Source of the DNA: a virus
IMG/VR virus record: IMGVR_UViG_3300045988_003400
Coordinates: 1-6,302 of that record
Length of the DNA stretch: 6,302 nucleotides
Reading direction: 5' to 3' (one strand)
Position 1 is the first letter of the stretch. Every line of letters starts with the position of its first letter. The position numbers and the translations under genes are program-made. The notes under the pieces are model-generated. The model saw only the letters and a program-made list of their open reading frames with translations. It made no database searches and was not told the origin of the DNA. Positions 1 through 6,302 of the stretch are shown here, piece after piece.

Positions 1-55
1 CTGGTCGTTGGTGGTCTACTTCTTTAACTAATTCTGATGATTCTGCTAGTTATAC
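1..55. repeat. Terminal redundancy: left copy of an exact 55-nt direct repeat marking a circular 6,247-nt genome
   Basis: Nt 1-55 (ctggtcgttggtggtctacttctttaactaattctgatgattctgctagttatac) are identical to 6248-6302. The capsid reading frame is continuous across the implied junction. Confidence 0.9.
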
Positions 56-1322
56 TCAGCAGTATATTCAAAATAATACTGTAAATCTTTTTCCTCTTTT
101 GGCTTATCAGAAAATCTATCAAGATTTTTTCCGTTGGTCTCAATGGGAGAATGCTAATCCGTCGTCTTATAATGTTGACTATTATTCGGGCGTCAGTCCT
201 TATCTTGTTAGTTCTTTACCTTCTGCTTCTGACGCTTATTGGAAGTCTGATACAATGTTTGACCTCAAGTATTGTAACTGGAACAAGGATATGCTGATGG
301 GTGTTCTCCCGAATTCACAATTTGGCGATGTCGCTGTTATTGATATTTCTGATTCTGGCACTTCTAATATTGTTTTAGGCTCTAATGATAAAAAGAGTAC
401 GGTAGCTATTGCATCTGCTGTAACTTCTAATACTGTTCCGGTTCCTTTCTTCGCTTCTCAGGCTTCTTCTTCTAATGCTTTACCTGTAGGCTCTACGCTT
501 CGTGCTGACTTGTCCTCTTTAAAGTCTCAATTTACGGTTCTTGCACTTCGTCAGGCTGAAGCTTTACAACGTTGGAAAGAAATCAGCCAATCTGGTGATT
601 CCGACTATCGTGAACAAATTCGTAAACATTTTGGCGTTAACTTGCCCCAGGCTCTTTCCAATATGTGCACCTATATCGGTGGTATTTCCCGTAATCTTGA
701 CATCAGTGAGGTTGTTAACAATAATCTTGCTGCCGAAGGTGATATTGCCGTTATTGCCGGTAAAGGTGTAGGTGCTGGTAATGGCTCATTTACATATACT
801 ACCAATGAGCATTGTGTTGTTATGTGTATTTATCATGCCGTTCCTTTGCTTGATTATTCTATTACTGGTCAAGATGGACAGCTATTGGTTACTGATGCCG
901 AATCTTTGCCGATTCCGGAGTTCGATAATATTGGCATGGAAGTTCTTCCCATGACCCAGATATTCAACTCTCCGCTCGCTACCGCTTTCAACTTGTTTAA
1001 TGCCGGATATAATCCCCGTTACTTCAATTGGAAAACTAAGCTTGACGTTATCAACGGTGCGTTTACTACTACCCTGAAGTCTTGGGTCTCTCCGGTTTCC
1101 GAATCTTTGATTTCCGGTTGGGCACAATTTGGCCATTCTACTCCTAATCCTGAAACTAAGGTTGCTTTGAACTATAAGTTCTTCAAGGTCAATCCTTCTG
1201 TTCTTGATCCTATCTTTGGCGTTAAATCTGATTCTACTTGGGACACTGACCAGCTTTTGGTTAATTCTTATATTGGTTGCTATGTTGCCCGTAACTTGTC
1301 TCGCGATGGTGTACCTTACTAA
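1..1322 (+). CDS. VP1: Major capsid protein VP1 (phiX174 F homolog), C-terminal portion; 5' part is at 5728..6302
   Basis: The frame is open from nt 3 (codons at 3, 6, 9...) to TAA at 1320-1322, and is in phase with 5728.. once 6,247 nt is subtracted. The track ORF 99..1322 is only the part after an in-frame TTG. Capsid-family motifs are LLAYQKIYQDFFRW and ALRQAEALQRWKE...DYREQIRKHFGV. The combined product is 613 aa. Confidence 0.93.
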   Translation, partial: GRWWSTSLTNSDDSASYTQQYIQNNTVNLFPLLAYQKIYQDFFRWSQWENANPSSYNVDYYSGVSPYLVSSLPSASDAYWKSDTMFDLKYCNWNKDMLMGVLPNSQFGDVAVIDISDSGTSNIVLGSNDKKSTVAIASAVTSNTVPVPFFASQASSSNALPVGSTLRADLSSLKSQFTVLALRQAEALQRWKEISQSGDSDYREQIRKHFGVNLPQALSNMCTYIGGISRNLDISEVVNNNLAAEGDIAVIAGKGVGAGNGSFTYTTNEHCVVMCIYHAVPLLDYSITGQDGQLLVTDAESLPIPEFDNIGMEVLPMTQIFNSPLATAFNLFNAGYNPRYFNWKTKLDVINGAFTTTLKSWVSPVSESLISGWAQFGHSTPNPETKVALNYKFFKVNPSVLDPIFGVKSDSTWDTDQLLVNSYIGCYVARNLSRDGVPY

Positions 1323-1336
1323 AATTTATTTTAATT

Positions 1337-1819
1337 ATGATTGGAAAGTTTAATTCTTTGAATGTTCTGGAACAAGGTTCTGAACTTATTCCCAATGTTT
1401 CTCCGGATGCTTTTGCCGTTGCTCCTCAGATTGATTCGACCGAGGAACTTCGTGTTGAAATTGATGAAAGTGACGAAACCCGTCCGGTACGTTATACCTC
1501 TGATATTCGTTTGATTCTTCATACTAAGGACTTGGCTTCTCGTGCTGGTCTTGCTGTTGCTTCTAAGTTCGGTCATGACCGTCAGTCTGCGTCTCAGATT
1601 CAACAGATTATGGATAAGATGTCTGATGAAGACCTTCTGAGTACGGTTCGTTCCCGTCATATCCAGTCTCCTTCTGAGATTATTGCCTGGTCTAAAGAAT
1701 TATCTGCTTATGCTGAAAATCTTGAAGCTCAGGCACAGGAATTGATTGATATTGAAACTGCTAAACAAGATGCAGAAAAAGCGGCTGCTGCTCCCGCTGA
1801 TGCTGCTTCCTCTGAATAA
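1337..1819 (+). CDS. Hypothetical acidic 160-aa protein; possibly an internal scaffolding (VP3-like) protein
   Basis: The ATG lies 14 nt after the VP1 stop. The stop overlaps the VP2 start (TAATG at 1817-1821). Third-position T bias matches the other genes. The product is acidic with an Ala/Glu-rich helical C-terminus. It sits between VP1 and VP2. The function is inferred from size and position only. Confidence 0.65.
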   Translation: MIGKFNSLNVLEQGSELIPNVSPDAFAVAPQIDSTEELRVEIDESDETRPVRYTSDIRLILHTKDLASRAGLAVASKFGHDRQSASQIQQIMDKMSDEDLLSTVRSRHIQSPSEIIAWSKELSAYAENLEAQAQELIDIETAKQDAEKAAAAPADAASSE

Positions 1820-2967
1820 TGGGTCTTCTTGGTTCAATCGCTGGTGGTCTCCTTGGTATTGGTTCTTCTGCTATTCAGAATTCACAGAATAGGCAGAATG
1901 TCCAGGAGACCAACCGGACGAATTATCAAATCAATCAAATGAATAACCAGTTTAACGAGCGTATGGCGATACAGCAGCGTAATTGGCAGGAGAATATGTG
2001 GAATAAGGAAAACGCTTATAATACTGCTTCTGCCCAGCGTCAACGTCTCGAAGAGGCTGGTTTAAATCCTTATCTGATGATGAACGGAGGTTCTGCTGGT
2101 GTTGCTCAGTCTGCTGGTACTGGTGCTACTGCTTCATCTTCTGGGAATGCTGTTATGCAACCTTTCCAGGCTGATTATTCCGGCATAGGTTCTTCCGTTG
2201 GTAATATCTTTCAGTACGAGCTGATGCAGTCTGAAAAGTCTCAATTGCAAGGTGCTCGACAACTTGCTGATGCTAAGGCTATGGAAACCCTTTCTAATAT
2301 TGATTGGGGTAAACTTACTAATGAAACCCGTAGTTACTTGAAATCGACTGGACTGGCTCGTGCTCAACTTGGTTATGCTAAGGAGCAACAGGAAGTTGAT
2401 AATATGGCGATGACAGGTCTTATTATGCGTGCTCAGCGTTCTGGTATGCTTCTCGACAATGAGGCTAAAGGTACTTTGAACAAATATCTTGACCAACAAC
2501 AACAGCTTGACCTAAATGTTAAGGCTGCGGATTATTATCAGCGTATGTCTGCTGGTTATCTTTCTTATTCTGAGGCTAAAAAAGCTTTGGCCGAAGAGCT
2601 TTTAGCGGCTGCTCGTACTCGTGGTCAGAATATTACGAATAAAGTTGCCTCTCGTATTGCTGAATCTCAAATTGCTGCTAATATTGCGGCTAACGAATCT
2701 TCTGCGGCTTATCATAATGAAGAGCTCAGATTGGGTCTTCCTCAAGACAATGCTCGTAGTAAGAATATTGAGGAATGGTATCGTTCTAGAAATGAAAAGA
2801 AAAGGTATAAGTATTATGATGCTGATAAATGGGTCGACTATGGCACTAGCATTGGTAATACTATAGGTAACTTCTTACCTCGTAGGGTTATTTCTAAGTC
2901 CTTTTCTCGTTCTATTAACCATAACTCTAACACTGGTTCTAATACTAATTATAACTACAATTATTAG
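1819..2967 (+). CDS. VP2: Minor capsid / DNA pilot protein VP2 (phiX174 H analog)
   Basis: The 382-aa product has a Gly-rich hydrophobic N-terminus (MGLLGSIAGGLLGIGSSAIQ) and a Q/N-rich segment. It carries the motif YNTASAQRQRLEEAGLNPYLMM, which is characteristic of gokusho/alpavirus VP2 proteins. The middle is long and predicted helical. The stop is TAG at 2965-2967. Confidence 0.88.
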   Translation: MGLLGSIAGGLLGIGSSAIQNSQNRQNVQETNRTNYQINQMNNQFNERMAIQQRNWQENMWNKENAYNTASAQRQRLEEAGLNPYLMMNGGSAGVAQSAGTGATASSSGNAVMQPFQADYSGIGSSVGNIFQYELMQSEKSQLQGARQLADAKAMETLSNIDWGKLTNETRSYLKSTGLARAQLGYAKEQQEVDNMAMTGLIMRAQRSGMLLDNEAKGTLNKYLDQQQQLDLNVKAADYYQRMSAGYLSYSEAKKALAEELLAAARTRGQNITNKVASRIAESQIAANIAANESSAAYHNEELRLGLPQDNARSKNIEEWYRSRNEKKRYKYYDADKWVDYGTSIGNTIGNFLPRRVISKSFSRSINHNSNTGSNTNYNYNY

Positions 2968-2995
2968 TTATATACGTTAGTCCTTTAAAGACATT

Positions 2996-3026
2996 ACCCG
3001 GCCGTATTCGATGCGTGCCGGGTTTT
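2996..3026 (+). terminator. Candidate intrinsic terminator hairpin ending the late (VP1-VP2) transcript
   Basis: The stem pairs 2997-3006 with 3012-3022: CCCGGC/GCCGGG plus CGTA/TGCG, with T3016 bulged and one G.T pair. The loop is 5 nt (TTCGA). TTTT follows at 3023-3026. It starts 29 nt after the VP2 stop. The T tract is short, and the hairpin could instead belong to the ssDNA structure described below. Confidence 0.5.
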
Positions 3027-3027
3027 G

Positions 3028-3335
3028 CTGCTTGGAGTAACTTCCGGCAACCGCGCGAAGCGTGGTTATACACCTCCTGAATTCCGGGAGACCCCGTCGA
3101 CTGGAATCAGAGCCGTTAGGCTATAGTACTGCCTTCCTTAAAACTTGATGCTTGCAACGCGTAAGCAATTTCCCGGAGAGCCTCTCTCTACCGTCGCTGC
3201 TATACCCTTTAAAATATAAATTGGCGAAGCCTACATGAGTTTGCCCGAAGGGAAAGCTATTCACCTCATAGCTTTCAGTCTCCTCTTGTCTTATATACGC
3301 AAACTCACAGACCAGCCTGCCACCCATATAGCTTA
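3028..3335 (+). other. G+C-rich, hairpin-dense non-coding element; candidate replication-origin / ssDNA-structure module
   Basis: Hand count gives 147 G+C in 3031-3330 (49%), against 40/100 in coding nt 101-200 and 16/80 in 3341-3420. Helices with stated pairings:
- 3049-3056/3060-3067
- 3077-3085/3103-3110 (A3080 bulged)
- 3111-3114/3119-3122
- 3149-3155/3161-3167
- 3223-3225/3229-3231
- 3236-3244/3299-3307 (9 bp, long range)
- 3252-3260/3268-3276 (9 bp, perfect)
There is no plausible + strand ORF. Confidence 0.6.
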
Positions 3336-3366
3336 TTGTTTATTAATGTTAATATTTACGTTGACA

Positions 3367-3399
3367 TTTGTTTTTTTTCAAACGTTTATTATATATTTG
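3367..3399 (+). promoter_or_regulatory. Bacteroides-type promoter (-33 TTTG, -7 TAnnTTTG) for the rightward operon
   Basis: TTTG at 3367-3370 and TATATTTG at 3392-3399 are separated by 21 nt, matching the published Bacteroides consensus and its 19-21 nt spacing. The region is AT-rich. The first ATG of the downstream ORF is at 3417, which implies a short leader. Confidence 0.55.
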
Positions 3400-3416
3400 C
3401 TCTGTCTTTAAAAACA

Positions 3417-3614
3417 ATGTCTAATTTAAATTGTAAATGTATGGAAAAGTTTTATTTGTGCTCTGTGCAGTCTAAGGTGAATCCCACTCAGAATGAGACT
3501 GTTCTTGTTTCTGTTGAGGATATTTCTGAGTTTGTATCTTCATGTATGGCTCCTGATTGTGTTATTATTGTTTCAAGTTGTTCAACCTTTAACAAACTTC
3601 CTGATGAAAAGTGA
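3417..3614 (+). CDS. Hypothetical 65-aa Cys-rich acidic protein
   Basis: This is the first ATG in the 3336..3614 open frame; the upstream part begins at TTG and overlaps the promoter. Third-position T bias is strong, as in the other genes. Six Cys are present (CKC...C...C..PDC......SC). The stop is TGA at 3612-3614. I recognise no family. Confidence 0.5.
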   Translation: MSNLNCKCMEKFYLCSVQSKVNPTQNETVLVSVEDISEFVSSCMAPDCVIIVSSCSTFNKLPDEK

Positions 3615-3693
3615 AACTAAATCTAAAATCTGGTCTGCGATTATTGCAGCTGCTGTTAGCCTTCTTACGTCTATTTCTCAAATATTTTCGTAA
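3604..3693 (+). CDS. 29-aa single-pass membrane peptide; candidate holin/pinholin-like or signal-anchor segment
   Basis: The ATG at 3604 overlaps the end of the upstream ORF (ATGA context). The product MKSETKSKIWSAIIAAAVSLLTSISQIFS has a charged N-terminus followed by an Ala/Ser/Ile-rich hydrophobic stretch. It lies directly upstream of, and in frame with, the M15 peptidase. Its small size makes the coding call uncertain. Confidence 0.45.
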   Translation: MKSETKSKIWSAIIAAAVSLLTSISQIFS

Positions 3694-3696
3694 GTC

Positions 3697-4005
3697 ATGA
3701 ATCCGGCACTAATGCAATTTATCGAATGGCTCCTTCGTTGGAATATTCATTTCTCGGTTACTTCTGCTCTTCGTACTAAGAAAGAAAATGAAGCGTGTGG
3801 AGGTTCTGAGAATTCCCAACACTTAACAGGCGATGCTGTTGATCTGAAGCCTCTTGGTTCTTCAGTAGATTCTTTTATATTGAAAATCAAAGAATCTGGT
3901 TTTAAGTTTGATCAACTTATAAGATATCGTACGTTTGTTCATATATCCTTTGCTCGTGGTCGTAATCCTCGTCAAATGGAACTTAATTTTACCGATAAAA
4001 AATGA
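3697..4005 (+). CDS. Zinc D-Ala-D-Ala carboxypeptidase-like peptidase, M15 family (Peptidase_M15_3/M15A-like); probable endolysin
   Basis: The 102-aa product contains TSALRTKKENEACGGSENSQHLTGDAVDL and a later FVHISF. These match the SxxR...GG..SxH..G.A.D ... H zinc-ligand (H, D, H) signature of M15 peptidases. The stop overlaps the Rep start (ATGA at 4002-4005). Confidence 0.82.
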   Translation: MNPALMQFIEWLLRWNIHFSVTSALRTKKENEACGGSENSQHLTGDAVDLKPLGSSVDSFILKIKESGFKFDQLIRYRTFVHISFARGRNPRQMELNFTDKK

Positions 4006-5699
4006 TTACTAAGGAATTACAGAATAAGCTAGTTACTCGTTGTCAGAATCCTCGTACGGTTGTCAATAAGTATACACATGAGCCCGTTGTTGTTTCTTGT
4101 GGTTCTTGCCCTTCGTGTGTTCTTCGTCGTTCCGGAATCCAGACTAACCTGCTTACTACTTATTCTGCTCAATTCCGTTATGTATACTTTGTTACTCTTA
4201 CTTATGCTCCTTGCTTTCTTCCTACTTTGGAAGTTTCGATTGTTGAGACTTGTACGGATGATGTTGCGGATGTACCCTGCTTTCCTGATATCAATGATTT
4301 GGACGCTGGTGACCCTAACACTTATATGTTTGGTTTTCGCAGCGTTCCTCGTTCCTCTTCTGTTAGGTTAAAAAATTCTACTGTAGAACGTACATTCAAA
4401 GACCCTGAGATAAGGTTTTCTTACTCCATGAAGCCTAAGGACTTGCTTTTTATTCTCAACAAAGTTAAGCATAATGTTCCGAATAGAATTCCTTATATTA
4501 ATAATCGTGACCTTGATTTGTTTTTGAAACGTTTAAGAAGTTATTATAGAGATGAAAAACTACGTTACTACGCTGTATCAGAATACGGACCCACGAGTTT
4601 CCGCCCGCATTGGCATCTGTTATTGTTTTCCAATTCCGAGCGATTCTCGCAAACTGTTTGTGAAAATGTATCTAAAGCTTGGTCTTACGGACGTTGTGAT
4701 GCGTCACTCTCGAGAGGATTCGCAGCACCGTATGTTGCGTCGTATGTTAATAGCTTTGTCGCTTTACCCGACTTTTATACTCAGATCCCAAAAGTGGTGC
4801 GACCTAAGTCCTTCCATTCCATTGGATTTACCGAATCAAATCTCTTTCCTGGAAAGGTACGAATTGCCGAAGTTGACGAAGTTGCCGATAAGTGCCTTGA
4901 TGGCGTCCGCGTTGAACGCGATGGCTATTTTCGAACAATTAAACCTTCTTGGCCGTATCTCCTTCGATTATTCCCCCGATTTTCGGACGCTATTCGTAAA
5001 TCTCCATCGAGTGTTTACCAGTTACTTTTTGCTGCGTTCACAGCGCCCGAACGCGTCATTCGTAGCGGATGCGCTGATATAGGATGTGATCCGTTTGGTG
5101 AAAGTCCCAATCAAAGTGTTTTGTCTTTTTGTAAATATTATTTAAATTATGTAGATAGTTATGGAAAATCAAATGAACATAGGAGCTTACTCTCTCCTAA
5201 GGCGAATTTACCGCATAGTGATATTCTCATTCTTACTGAATGTCGTTTGTATGATGGTGTTGATCTGGAACCTCTTCATCGTCTCTCCCGTGTGTACCGC
5301 TTTTTCCTCGGAATTTCTAAATTTATTCGAACGTATTCAACAAATGGATGCTCAGAACTCTTCTGGTCCAGCGGCACTCCTGGAGGAGAACTCTTTTGTC
5401 GAGAAAGATTTTTGCGAATAATCTCCGAGAAAATAGTTGAATTCTGGAATCGTTATGATTACAATCGTCTTGTGGATTTTTATCAAACTTTGGAAGATTC
5501 AAATGATAAGGAGTTGGTAGACTTTGAGCTTCGTAACTATTCCTTCCGTTATAATAGGTCTGTCCGTGATAAGGAAAAACCTTACCATGAATTGCCTCTT
5601 GTTCGTCGTTTGGCTGCCGCTTCATTGATGAAATGTAGGGATAAGGTTAAACATAAGAAGGTTAATGATTTGTTCGGTATTTTCTCTTATCAGAATTAA
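4002..5699 (+). CDS. VP4: Rolling-circle replication initiator protein VP4 (HUH endonuclease; phiX174 A analog)
   Basis: The product is 565 aa. An N-terminal Cys cluster reads CGSCPSC. Motif I is FVTLTY (nt 4188-4205). Motif II is RPHWHLLLF, with HWH at nt 4608-4616. Motif III is the two-tyrosine YVASYVNS, with Y codons at 4731 and 4743. The stop is TAA at 5697-5699. Confidence 0.93.
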   Translation: MITKELQNKLVTRCQNPRTVVNKYTHEPVVVSCGSCPSCVLRRSGIQTNLLTTYSAQFRYVYFVTLTYAPCFLPTLEVSIVETCTDDVADVPCFPDINDLDAGDPNTYMFGFRSVPRSSSVRLKNSTVERTFKDPEIRFSYSMKPKDLLFILNKVKHNVPNRIPYINNRDLDLFLKRLRSYYRDEKLRYYAVSEYGPTSFRPHWHLLLFSNSERFSQTVCENVSKAWSYGRCDASLSRGFAAPYVASYVNSFVALPDFYTQIPKVVRPKSFHSIGFTESNLFPGKVRIAEVDEVADKCLDGVRVERDGYFRTIKPSWPYLLRLFPRFSDAIRKSPSSVYQLLFAAFTAPERVIRSGCADIGCDPFGESPNQSVLSFCKYYLNYVDSYGKSNEHRSLLSPKANLPHSDILILTECRLYDGVDLEPLHRLSRVYRFFLGISKFIRTYSTNGCSELFWSSGTPGGELFCRERFLRIISEKIVEFWNRYDYNRLVDFYQTLEDSNDKELVDFELRNYSFRYNRSVRDKEKPYHELPLVRRLAAASLMKCRDKVKHKKVNDLFGIFSYQN

Positions 5700-5727
5700 A
5701 TAGTGTTTAATTTTTTAATGTTTTTTT

Positions 5728-6302
5728 ATGGCTTCTTACACTGGAATGTCCAATCTCCAGAATCATCCTCACCGTTCTGGATTCGATATTGGACGTAAAA
5801 ATTGCTTTACTGCAAAGGTTGGTGAGCTTCTCCCTGTCTATTGGGATATATCAATGCCCGGTGATAAATATCGGTTTAACGTTGAGTATTTTACTCGCAC
5901 TCAACCTGTTGAAACATCTGCTTATACTCGCGTTCGTGAGTACTTTGATTTTTATGCTGTGCCGTTACGTCTTCTTTGGAAGTCTGCTCCTTCTGTATTG
6001 ACACAAATGCAGGATGTTAATCAGATTCAAGCGTCGTCTTTGACACTGAATTTGGCTTTGGGTTCTTATTTACCCTCTCTAGCTCTTAATGTTTTAGGCT
6101 CTGCTTCTGTTCGTTTGAATGGAGGTTCCACGTCTCCTGGTAATAGTTCAGGTTTCTCAAATTCATTTGGTTTTTCTCGTGCAGATTGTTGTTATAAACT
6201 TTTGAGTTATCTTGGTTATGGTAACATTATGAAGGATGTCCCTTCTTCTGGTCGTTGGTGGTCTACTTCTTTAACTAATTCTGATGATTCTGCTAGTTAT
6301 AC
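5728..6302 (+). CDS. VP1: Major capsid protein VP1, N-terminal portion (runs off the window end and continues at nt 56 of the circle)
   Basis: The ATG at 5728 is the first start after an in-frame TAA at 5716-5718. There is no stop before the window end. The translation MASYTGMSNLQNHPHRSGFDIGRKNCFTAKVGELLPVYWDISMPGDKYRF...REYFDFYAVPLRLLW is a typical microvirus capsid N-terminus. The ORF track missed it because the stop lies beyond the window. Confidence 0.92.
   Translation, partial: MASYTGMSNLQNHPHRSGFDIGRKNCFTAKVGELLPVYWDISMPGDKYRFNVEYFTRTQPVETSAYTRVREYFDFYAVPLRLLWKSAPSVLTQMQDVNQIQASSLTLNLALGSYLPSLALNVLGSASVRLNGGSTSPGNSSGFSNSFGFSRADCCYKLLSYLGYGNIMKDVPSSGRWWSTSLTNSDDSASY
6248..6302. repeat. 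Terminal redundancy: right copy of the 55-nt repeat
   Basis: Exact identity to nt 1-55. Confidence 0.9.

Follow-up and report, generated by a model that had tools for sequence, protein, structure and literature searches.

The circular microvirus genome recovered as IMG/VR record IMGVR_UViG_3300045988_003400 (positions 1 to 6,302; this whole stretch of 6302 nucleotides [nt] is hereafter called the window) carries a conserved, hairpin-dense element at positions 3028-3335, in its only large noncoding gap. We propose, with a probability of roughly 0.6, that the element acts in cis as a replication region of the encapsidated single strand and that its 5' module serves as a complementary-strand origin. 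For the 3' module, a role as the Rep (+) origin or as a second or accessory priming signal is conceivable. Comparison of related genomes established a conserved structure, the strand that folds, the class of its loops, the portability of the 5' module, and a position that is always on the T-rich strand. The gap spans 450 nt (2968-3417), compared with 14, 3, and 28 nt for the remaining gaps, and the G+C content is 49.0% in 3028-3335 and 54.6% in 3045-3207, compared with 40.2% across the 6247-nt genome. A first-pass annotation, made from the letters of the window, had described such a G+C-rich segment in a solitary gap, and both points hold. The comparison provides a concrete candidate for a complementary-strand origin, for which the helices, loops, and boundaries are mapped. 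Microviruses rank with the most abundant gut phages, and to our knowledge the conversion of their single strand to double strand has not been described outside the phiX174/G4 group.

Homologs and covarying helices

The element was found in ninety-plus related microvirus genomes. The sequences were conserved well enough for homologs to be collected by pattern and BLAST searches: 15 phage records with the element came from blastn, 45 IMG/VR contigs of microvirus size came from an exact scan for the core of helix P2, and the P2 core scan of metagenomes gave 59 contigs, mostly from the human gut. A looser pattern added no further IMG/VR members. Two independent core patterns gave no match in 185,579 bacterial and archaeal genomes, and blastn against PLSDB plasmids gave no match to the element, which is therefore specific to microviruses. 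A captured host gene was ruled out by the empty core-pattern searches, and a plasmid single-strand origin was rejected from the empty PLSDB search. One contig, L097, is palindromic and carries the element twice in inverted orientation; it and two concatemeric contigs (L061 and L075) were regarded as assembly artifacts.

Covariation statistics were obtained from a 43-sequence alignment in which ten helices (P1 to P10; Table 1) were placed by hand. The first-pass annotation had folded at least seven helices by eye, and those that it located, namely, the long-range helix P8, the mini-hairpin P9, and the perfect hairpin P10, are all present. Among the 2579 helix cells of the 43 homologs, 96.8% were paired, compared with 33-43% when the partners were slid, and 13 pairs showed double-sided changes, compared with 1-4 in the slid controls. 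The observed covariation score was reached by none of 500 shuffles. In distant members, the P3 pairing CTGA/TCAG is replaced by CCGA/TCGG, CACA/TGTG, CTAA/TTAG, or AATT/AATT, the P4 pairing AGCC/GGCT is replaced by ATTCAC/GTGAAT, P7 takes four forms, and P10 is rewritten in mar62. P1 and P5 vary by wobbles only, and P1 is weakly supported for this reason. A further small hairpin, P0 (GGAG/TTCC, 3034-3045), was discarded as unsupported, with mismatches in several relatives.

The first-pass annotation had recommended folding with both RNA and DNA parameters and a search of Rfam. The folding energy of 2968-3420 gave a z score of -4.4 against dinucleotide shuffles under RNA and DNA parameters alike, and that of 3028-3335 gave -2.8 under DNA parameters. 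Rfam 15 showed no match within 2968-3417 even at E ≤ 10, and searches of the gap for tRNA and tmRNA found none; a known RNA family or tRNA was thus rejected. Protein coding was also rejected, because the lengths of the overlapping open reading frames (ORFs) are not conserved among 99 relatives (19-100 amino acids [aa] for the + strand ORF 3235-3411 and 1-116 aa for the - strand ORF 3121-3327). Thus, the outcomes that the first-pass annotation had listed as fatal to the element, namely, unconserved helices, coding on either strand, or an Rfam match, were not observed.

The folded strand and its loops

In the helix cells of the 43 homologs, G-T wobbles numbered 227 and A-C wobbles numbered 27 (190 and 11, respectively, without P6), and three G-T pairs are invariant. 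The large excess of G-T over A-C indicates that the folded strand is the + strand of the window.

Loops of the form cGNAg or cGNNAg were found in five hairpins: P2 (GCGNAGC, with N free), the tip of P3, P4, P7, and P9. The P7 and P9 loops are cGAAg, cGTAg, or cGGAg, and P4 and the P3 tip alternate between cGNAg and cGNNAg (GTTA, GTCA, GCCA, and GATA). P4 carries GTTA, GTCA, GCCA, GAA, or GTA, the 3-nt and 4-nt forms interconverting, and the distal loop of P3 is often cGTTAg, cGTAg, or cGATAg in relatives. Tetraloops in the aligned loop lists comprised about 48 GNYA and 2 GNRA. Across 45 genomes, the density of mini-hairpin motifs was 8.1 per kb in the element, and the two strands outside it had 0.18 and 0.43 per kb; the window has four in the element (3054-3062, 3111-3122, 3223-3231, and 3244-3252) and one elsewhere on the + strand. 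GCGNAGC and GCGNNAGC form extraordinarily stable DNA mini-hairpins, with melting temperatures of 76-89°C as DNA, compared with 39°C for the RNA r(GCGAAAGC) (Hirao review, PMC13037366). Mini-hairpins have been reported at the primase origins of G4 (GCGAAAGC) and St-1/alpha3 (GCGTTAGC), at ssiA of RSF1010 (CCGAAGG), and at the single-stranded promoters of N4 (PMC13037366). Our motif scan found GGCGTTAGCC in the alpha3 G-H gap, at 5047-5056. The loops of the element conform to the DNA mini-hairpin rule (GCGNAGC, cGNNAg) and not to the RNA GNRA rule.

Position on the T-rich strand

The T-rich strand carries the element in 91 of 91 genomes, whatever the orientation of the genes. In most genomes this is the gene strand. 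In the reversed clade (mar45, mar40, L036, L079, L095, L108, and L112), the element lies opposite to all genes, downstream of Rep, and lineage-specific G-T wobbles are still on the element strand. Base composition at 4-fold sites was computed for 84 same-strand and 6 opposite-strand genomes, mar40 being the seventh reversed genome, outside this computation. The coding strand contained T at.634, A at.119, C at.164, and G at.083 in the same-strand genomes and A at.588, T at.120, C at.130, and G at.163 in the opposite-strand genomes; read on the element strand, the latter gave T at.588, A at.120, C at.163, and G at.130. This mirror image was also seen at first codon positions and in noncoding DNA, thereby indicating a strand-wide bias and not a codon preference. 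The NNT/T excess of single-stranded DNA phages at synonymous sites has been attributed to C-to-T change on the single strand (PMC3278643).

The mar45-like lineage of gut microviruses includes 139 GenBank records by capsid similarity, and the coding strands were A-rich in 6 of 6 sampled. In the genomes of this lineage (L054, which is mar45; L008, which is mar40; L036, L079, L095, L108, L112, and L120-L125), 4-fold sites of the coding strand contain 46-66% A and 6-23% T, which mirrors ordinary microviruses. The gap after Rep in the mar45-like genome mar60 is full of cGNAg hairpins on the antisense strand, and slight support for reversed polarity, mostly from mar60, came from counting mini-hairpins within intergenic gaps in six further A-rich genomes. 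Most simply, the packaged strand would always be the one with the element, and in the mar45 lineage it would be the antisense strand. We suggest tentatively, at somewhat less than even odds, that mar45-like microviruses encapsidate the mRNA-complementary strand and would be negative-sense Microviridae. If so, the packaged strand would be marked by the portable 5' module, and polarity in the family would be set by an exchangeable origin cassette, not by gene orientation. A clade confirmed to package the antisense strand would change genome orientation, annotation, and the reading of strand-specific virome libraries.

In mar45 and mar40, the annotated Rep ORFs enter the antisense side of the element by 36-70 nt (4540-4611 and 1032-1067, respectively). 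The overlapping C-terminal residues of Rep probably represent accidental extension or forced overlap.

Portability of the 5' module

The 5' module of the window is 88.5% identical over 174 nt to those of L095 and L108, and tblastn detected no protein similarity between the window and these two genomes. A 43-nt core of the module is 97.7% identical in Dulem 262, whose Rep shows 37% identity over 79 aa. Altogether, phages that share the 5' module at 72-98% identity have Reps that can hardly be aligned (31% over 51 aa and 37% over 79 aa). A variant 5' module with a 120-130-nt insert is common to L026 and L043 of the main clade and to L036 and L079 of the reversed clade. Because it is kept or exchanged across phages with unrelated proteins, the 5' module fits a site read by a host enzyme, which suggests that it may be recognized by a host factor. 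The 3' module co-occurs only with the 565-aa Rep type and has no counterpart in the reversed clade or in Dulem 262. Since it is clade specific and has an invariant loop on a covarying stem (P10), this module fits a site read by the phage Rep. The near identity of 5' modules across phages with unrelated proteins points to replication signals that move as cassettes between microvirus lineages.

Proposed mechanism and alternatives

When the phage injects its circular single-stranded DNA, the hairpins of the element would form, and the highly stable cGNAg/cGNNAg mini-hairpins would keep single-strand-binding protein off the region. The 5' module (3031-3208) would then be recognized by a host priming enzyme, which may be the DnaG primase, the PriA primosome, or RNA polymerase. 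From a short RNA primer made at this module, the host polymerase would be able to convert the single strand to the double-stranded replicative form. The whole gap with both modules would resemble the multifunctional intergenic region of the Ff phages. Priming, its enzyme, and the role of the 3' module are what we infer from the comparison. The loop class, the setting, and the T-rich-strand position favor a role of single-stranded DNA over a role of RNA; the first-pass annotation had also preferred a DNA-level role in the packaged strand to a noncoding RNA, and the loops, the strand asymmetry, and the orientation support this preference.

Several observations weigh against a complementary-strand origin on the packaged strand. 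The element shows no recognizable motif of a particular priming system. Nearest-neighbor energies, with RNA or DNA parameters, did not favor the element strand over its complement; with either set the complement folds slightly better, which makes this comparison uninformative, and the energy model used has no bonus for GNA loops. G-T wobbles account for about 9% of helix cells and drift freely with C-G, which is typical of RNA, although free drift of this kind would also be expected from C-to-T change in single-stranded DNA. RNA, too, is known to contain tandem G-A pairs and GNA loops. The argument from the T-rich strand rests on one reversed clade, whose acquisitions of the element are not independent because homologous recombination of modules preserves orientation. 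T-richness is also not a proven marker of the packaged strand, because phiMH2K (L058), a cultured gokushovirus, is A-rich on its coding strand (A at.45, C at.25, T at.24, and G at.07 at 4-fold sites) yet assumed to be positive-sense. The coding strand of Chp2 (L057) is T-rich at 4-fold sites (.52).

An alternative that also operates at the DNA level on the packaged strand would make the element mainly a Rep nick site and/or a signal for rolling-circle packaging or termination. This possibility, which we consider unlikely, predicts the T-rich-strand position equally well and draws on the restriction of the 3' module to one Rep type, and the near-invariant 7-nt loop of P10 on its covarying stem has the usual look of an HUH-Rep nick hairpin. 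The sequence CTTGAT at 3144-3149 is similar to the CTTG|ATA nick motif of phiX174/pC194; however, CTTG is followed by A, C, or G and is itself replaced by CTTA or CTTT in some sequences, which speaks somewhat against a nick site at this position. A host factor fits better than Rep with a 5' module that is shared by phages with barely alignable Reps. Packaging in microviruses is coupled to Rep-driven synthesis, and we know of no packaging signal in these phages, both of which count against a packaging signal here. Complementary-strand priming and a Rep origin are not exclusive roles, and the 3' module may well be the (+) origin.

A structured noncoding RNA is less probable still. It could be an independent gene or a read-through 3' untranslated region of the structural operon, acting in trans or stabilizing mRNA, and it would account for the covariation, the frequent G-U-compatible wobbles, and the z score of -4.4 under RNA parameters. 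Conserved unpaired joiners between covarying stems are likewise seen in complex RNAs, and the reversed orientation could mean an independent gene. In that clade, however, the RNA would be antisense to every gene, and complementary-strand genes are essentially unreported in Microviridae (PMC3394797). The element directly follows a terminator-like hairpin, with no promoter found by the scanner between the two and no terminator found by it downstream of the element. Rfam is empty even at E=10, the tetraloops are GNYA and not GNRA, triloops and tetraloops interchange, and an RNA would leave the constant T-rich-strand position unexplained. Near-identical 5' modules in unrelated phages, the modular make-up, and the optional inserts could also reflect selfish, nonautonomous mobile DNA without a phage function, for example, a hairpin-ended element moving via single-stranded DNA. 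This explanation is highly improbable, given one copy per genome, always in the main intergenic gap and at the same place within each clade, and the presence of the element throughout the clades that were sampled with the core pattern. Neither terminal repeats nor a target-site signature nor empty sites could be seen, and the element is absent from the 185,579 bacterial genomes searched with two patterns and from plasmids.

Organization of the element and its surroundings

An exact 55-nt terminal repeat (1-55 and 6248-6302) indicates that the genome is circular, with 6247 nt, and the window is cut inside the capsid gene. The nearest GenBank relatives, at about 83% identity, are the fecal microviruses Dulem 236, Dulem 257, bajarodmic 1134, and bajarodmic 410. 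All window genes are on the + strand, as is the element (Table 1).

Table 1. Genes, signals, and parts of the element in the window
Feature	Position	Strand	Description
Capsid gene	5728 through junction to 1322	+	Name from annotated relatives
Scaffold gene	1337-1819	+	Name from annotated relatives
Pilot gene	1819-2967 (stop 2965-2967)	+	Name from annotated relatives
Terminator-like hairpin	2997-3002/3017-3022, then TTTT (2997-3026)	+	CCCGGC...GCCGGG; context, outside the element
5' module	3031-3208	+	Multi-hairpin domain closed by P1, holding P2-P6; in every family member, distant clades included
P1	3045-3048/3193-3196	+	CGGC pairs with GTCG; 97.7% of cells pair; CG 25, TG 18
P2	3049-3067	+	8-bp hairpin AACCGCGC-GAA-GCGTGGTT; contains GCGNAGC; invariant G-T wobble 3053/3063
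Unpaired motif TTAWACACC	3066-3074	+	3' of P2; here TTATACACC; invariant in alignments
P3	3077-3110	+	4-bp plus 6-bp helix, one bulged A; several pair types at most positions
P4	3111-3122	+	Mini-hairpin AGCC-GTTA-GGCT; stem replaced by ATTCAC-GAA-GTGAAT in mar62 and mar45
Unpaired joiner	3123-3147	+	ATAGTACTGCC...CTTG; TATAGTA and CTTG near-invariant
P5	3148-3162	+	4-bp hairpin ATGC/GCGT, conserved loop TTGCAAC; 99.4% of cells pair
P6	3175-3189	+	Variable hairpin GGAGAG-CCT-CTCTCT; 76.7% of cells pair, some compensatory changes
Second copy, CTAWACMCC	3200-3208	+	3' of P1; CTATACCC at 3200-3207; in all variants, including variant B and Dulem 262
Linker	3209-3221	+	A/T-rich, joins the modules
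3' module	3222-3313	+	P7-P10 (P8 encloses P9 and P10); main clade and mar62 only
P7	3223-3231	+	GGC-GAA-GCC; covaries as GGC/GCC, GAC/GTC, GGT/ACC, GAT/ATC
P8	3236-3244/3299-3307	+	9-bp long-range helix
P9	3244-3252	+	Mini-hairpin CCCGAAGGG
P10	3252-3260/3268-3276	+	Perfect 9-bp hairpin; G-C to T-A in 19/43; stem rewritten in mar62
Unpaired stretch	3277-3298	+	CAGTCTCCTCTTGTCTTATATAC; conserved
Promoter-like site	3367-3399	+	Bacteroidota type: TTTG 3367-3370, 21 nt, TATATTTG 3392-3399; ahead of small ORFs
Small ORFs	From 3418 (starts 3418/3442)	+	
Peptidase gene	3697-4005	+	Name from annotated relatives
Rep gene	4002-5699	+	Name from annotated relatives; 565-aa Rep type

P2 is the most conserved part of the element. 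Its closing C-G pair is invariant, the loop position N is T in 31, A in 9, and C in 3 of the 43 sequences (G in mar40), and a compensatory change from C-G to T-A occurs in mar62, mar45, L095, and L112. The motif TTAWACACC was found once in the window, compared with 0.26 expected by chance; this motif and its CTAWACMCC copy may be candidate primer-initiation or protein-contact sites. P3 continues into conserved tandem G-A/A-G mismatches and then into a distal mini-stem. At two pairs of P5, C-G alternates with T-G (30:13 and 23:20), and P6 is optional, being missing from CCTCTAATCTC variants. Six IMG/VR relatives (L006, L022, L024, L026, L031, and L043) have hairpin-rich inserts of 48-134 nt in the linker, with the hairpins GTCGC-TTG-GCGAC, TCCGAAGGA, and GCGCGAAGCGC. 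The P10 loop is TCACCTC in the window (3261-3267), and its consensus, TTACCTC, is near-invariant in relatives.

The hairpin at 2997-3022 sits 30 nt past the pilot-gene stop, and its stem covaries in relatives (CCCGAC/GTCGGG, CCCAGT/GCTGGG, and TCCGGC/GCCGGA). In the reversed clade, where no gene precedes the element on that strand, such a hairpin is missing upstream of the element; the hairpin therefore belongs to the gene, not to the element, and is probably the terminator of the capsid-scaffold-pilot operon. A simple scanner did not call it a terminator because only four T follow. On the other side of the element, the promoter-like site is kept in relatives as TATATCTTTG. Its TTTG and TAnnTTTG boxes presumably fit the Bacteroidota promoter consensus, which was reportedly described by Bayley et al. 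in 2000, and a sigma-70 scan did not call the site because the spacer is too long. As a predicted promoter, the site agrees with a Bacteroidota host. The first-pass annotation had set the element after a terminator-like hairpin and before the only good promoter; this placement stands, but both labels are weak consensus matches. The small Cys-rich ORF at 3418-3614 is conserved in relatives from the second ATG (ATGGAAAAGTATTATTTGTG, 3442).

Integrated proviruses of the window's microvirus clade were observed in a Bacteroidota-like chromosome on two metagenome contigs (L106 and L092), between gyrA plus a TPR gene and a uspA-like gene. Their direct repeats are ATTATATTAAACATAATCCTGATATTG and ATTTATATTAAACATTCTCCTGATATTG (about 3925-3951 and 10405-10432 in L106, element-oriented). 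No integrase was evident in the two contigs, and host Xer-type recombination is possible. The element itself was rejected as the attachment (att) site: the att core of these proviruses is a separate 27-28-nt repeat downstream, missing from the window. The att-core motif TATATTAAACATTCTnCTGATATTG lies 70-100 nt past the element in Dulem 257, bajarodmic 1134, bajarodmic 410, mar62, and L045, and it is deleted in Dulem 236 and in the window (3336-3417 compared with L005, L006, L007, L002, and L045). Because of this deletion, the window genome probably cannot integrate. In another contig, L083, a 1289-aa ORF (1342-5208, element-oriented) has a long N-terminal region with a signal-peptide-like start fused to the capsid protein; either the assembly is chimeric or the capsid is genuinely extended.

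Comparison with known systems

The primase-dependent complementary-strand origins of the coliphages G4, St-1, alpha3, and phiK (Bullavirinae) are, like the element, intergenic hairpin clusters, and G4-type origins lie on the microvirus virion strand. Those of G4, St-1, and alpha3 also have a GCGNNAGC-type mini-hairpin, which is represented here by GCCGTTAGGC in P4 and GCGAAGC in P2 and P7. Mini-hairpins lie within the hairpin cluster at four sites of the element, which is noncoding and on the T-rich, presumably packaged strand. Unlike G4-type origins, the element is about twice as long, has four or five mini-hairpins instead of one, and consists of two modules with optional inserts; its host is Bacteroidota-like and not Escherichia coli. 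A blastn-short comparison of both modules with alpha3 gave no match, and no homology to the G4/St-1/alpha3 origin was found. At the PriA primosome assembly site of phiX174, one hairpin of about 55 nt activates the PriA ATPase, and we know of no sequence consensus for such sites. The Ff phages (f1/M13) likewise have one structured noncoding region of several hundred nt, on the packaged strand, in which adjacent hairpin modules form the packaging signal, an RNA-polymerase-primed minus origin, and the plus origin. Unlike the element, it belongs to an unrelated virus family and shares no homology.

Plasmid single-strand origins are orientation-specific, folded, noncoding regions of 150-300 nt that function only in single-stranded form, and they are interchangeable cassettes recognized by host enzymes (PMC4595007). 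Like ssoA, ssoU, ssoT, ssoW, and sso1 of ICEBs1, the 5' module of about 165 nt has several hairpins and is orientation specific (91/91 on the T-rich, presumably packaged strand; G-T:A-C, 227:27). Unlike rolling-circle plasmid origins, the element has no similarity to any PLSDB plasmid. Origins of the ssoA type have a conserved CS-6 (TAGCGT/A) within a terminal loop and an RSB site. A resemblance to CS-6 of ssoA (TAGCGT) was judged coincidental: it is limited to P2 loop variants with N = T (31/43), and therefore not conserved, and the window has AAGCGT.

In roodoodoo- and reekeekee-microviruses, conserved intergenic hairpins with compensatory substitutions have been proposed as candidates for minus-strand initiation (PMC9865509). 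The statement of the first-pass annotation that no such element is defined thus holds for the lineage of the window but not for the idea, since hairpin minus-origins had already been proposed (PMC9865509). These viruses are uncultured, as here, and their hairpins are similarly conserved with compensatory substitutions. They have one or two simple hairpins of 13-64 nt, compared with about ten helices in two modules, and, unlike them, the element is shared across very distant clades and comes with evidence for the folding strand. By these comparisons, the element would belong with the single-strand origins, although it has no homology to known origins.

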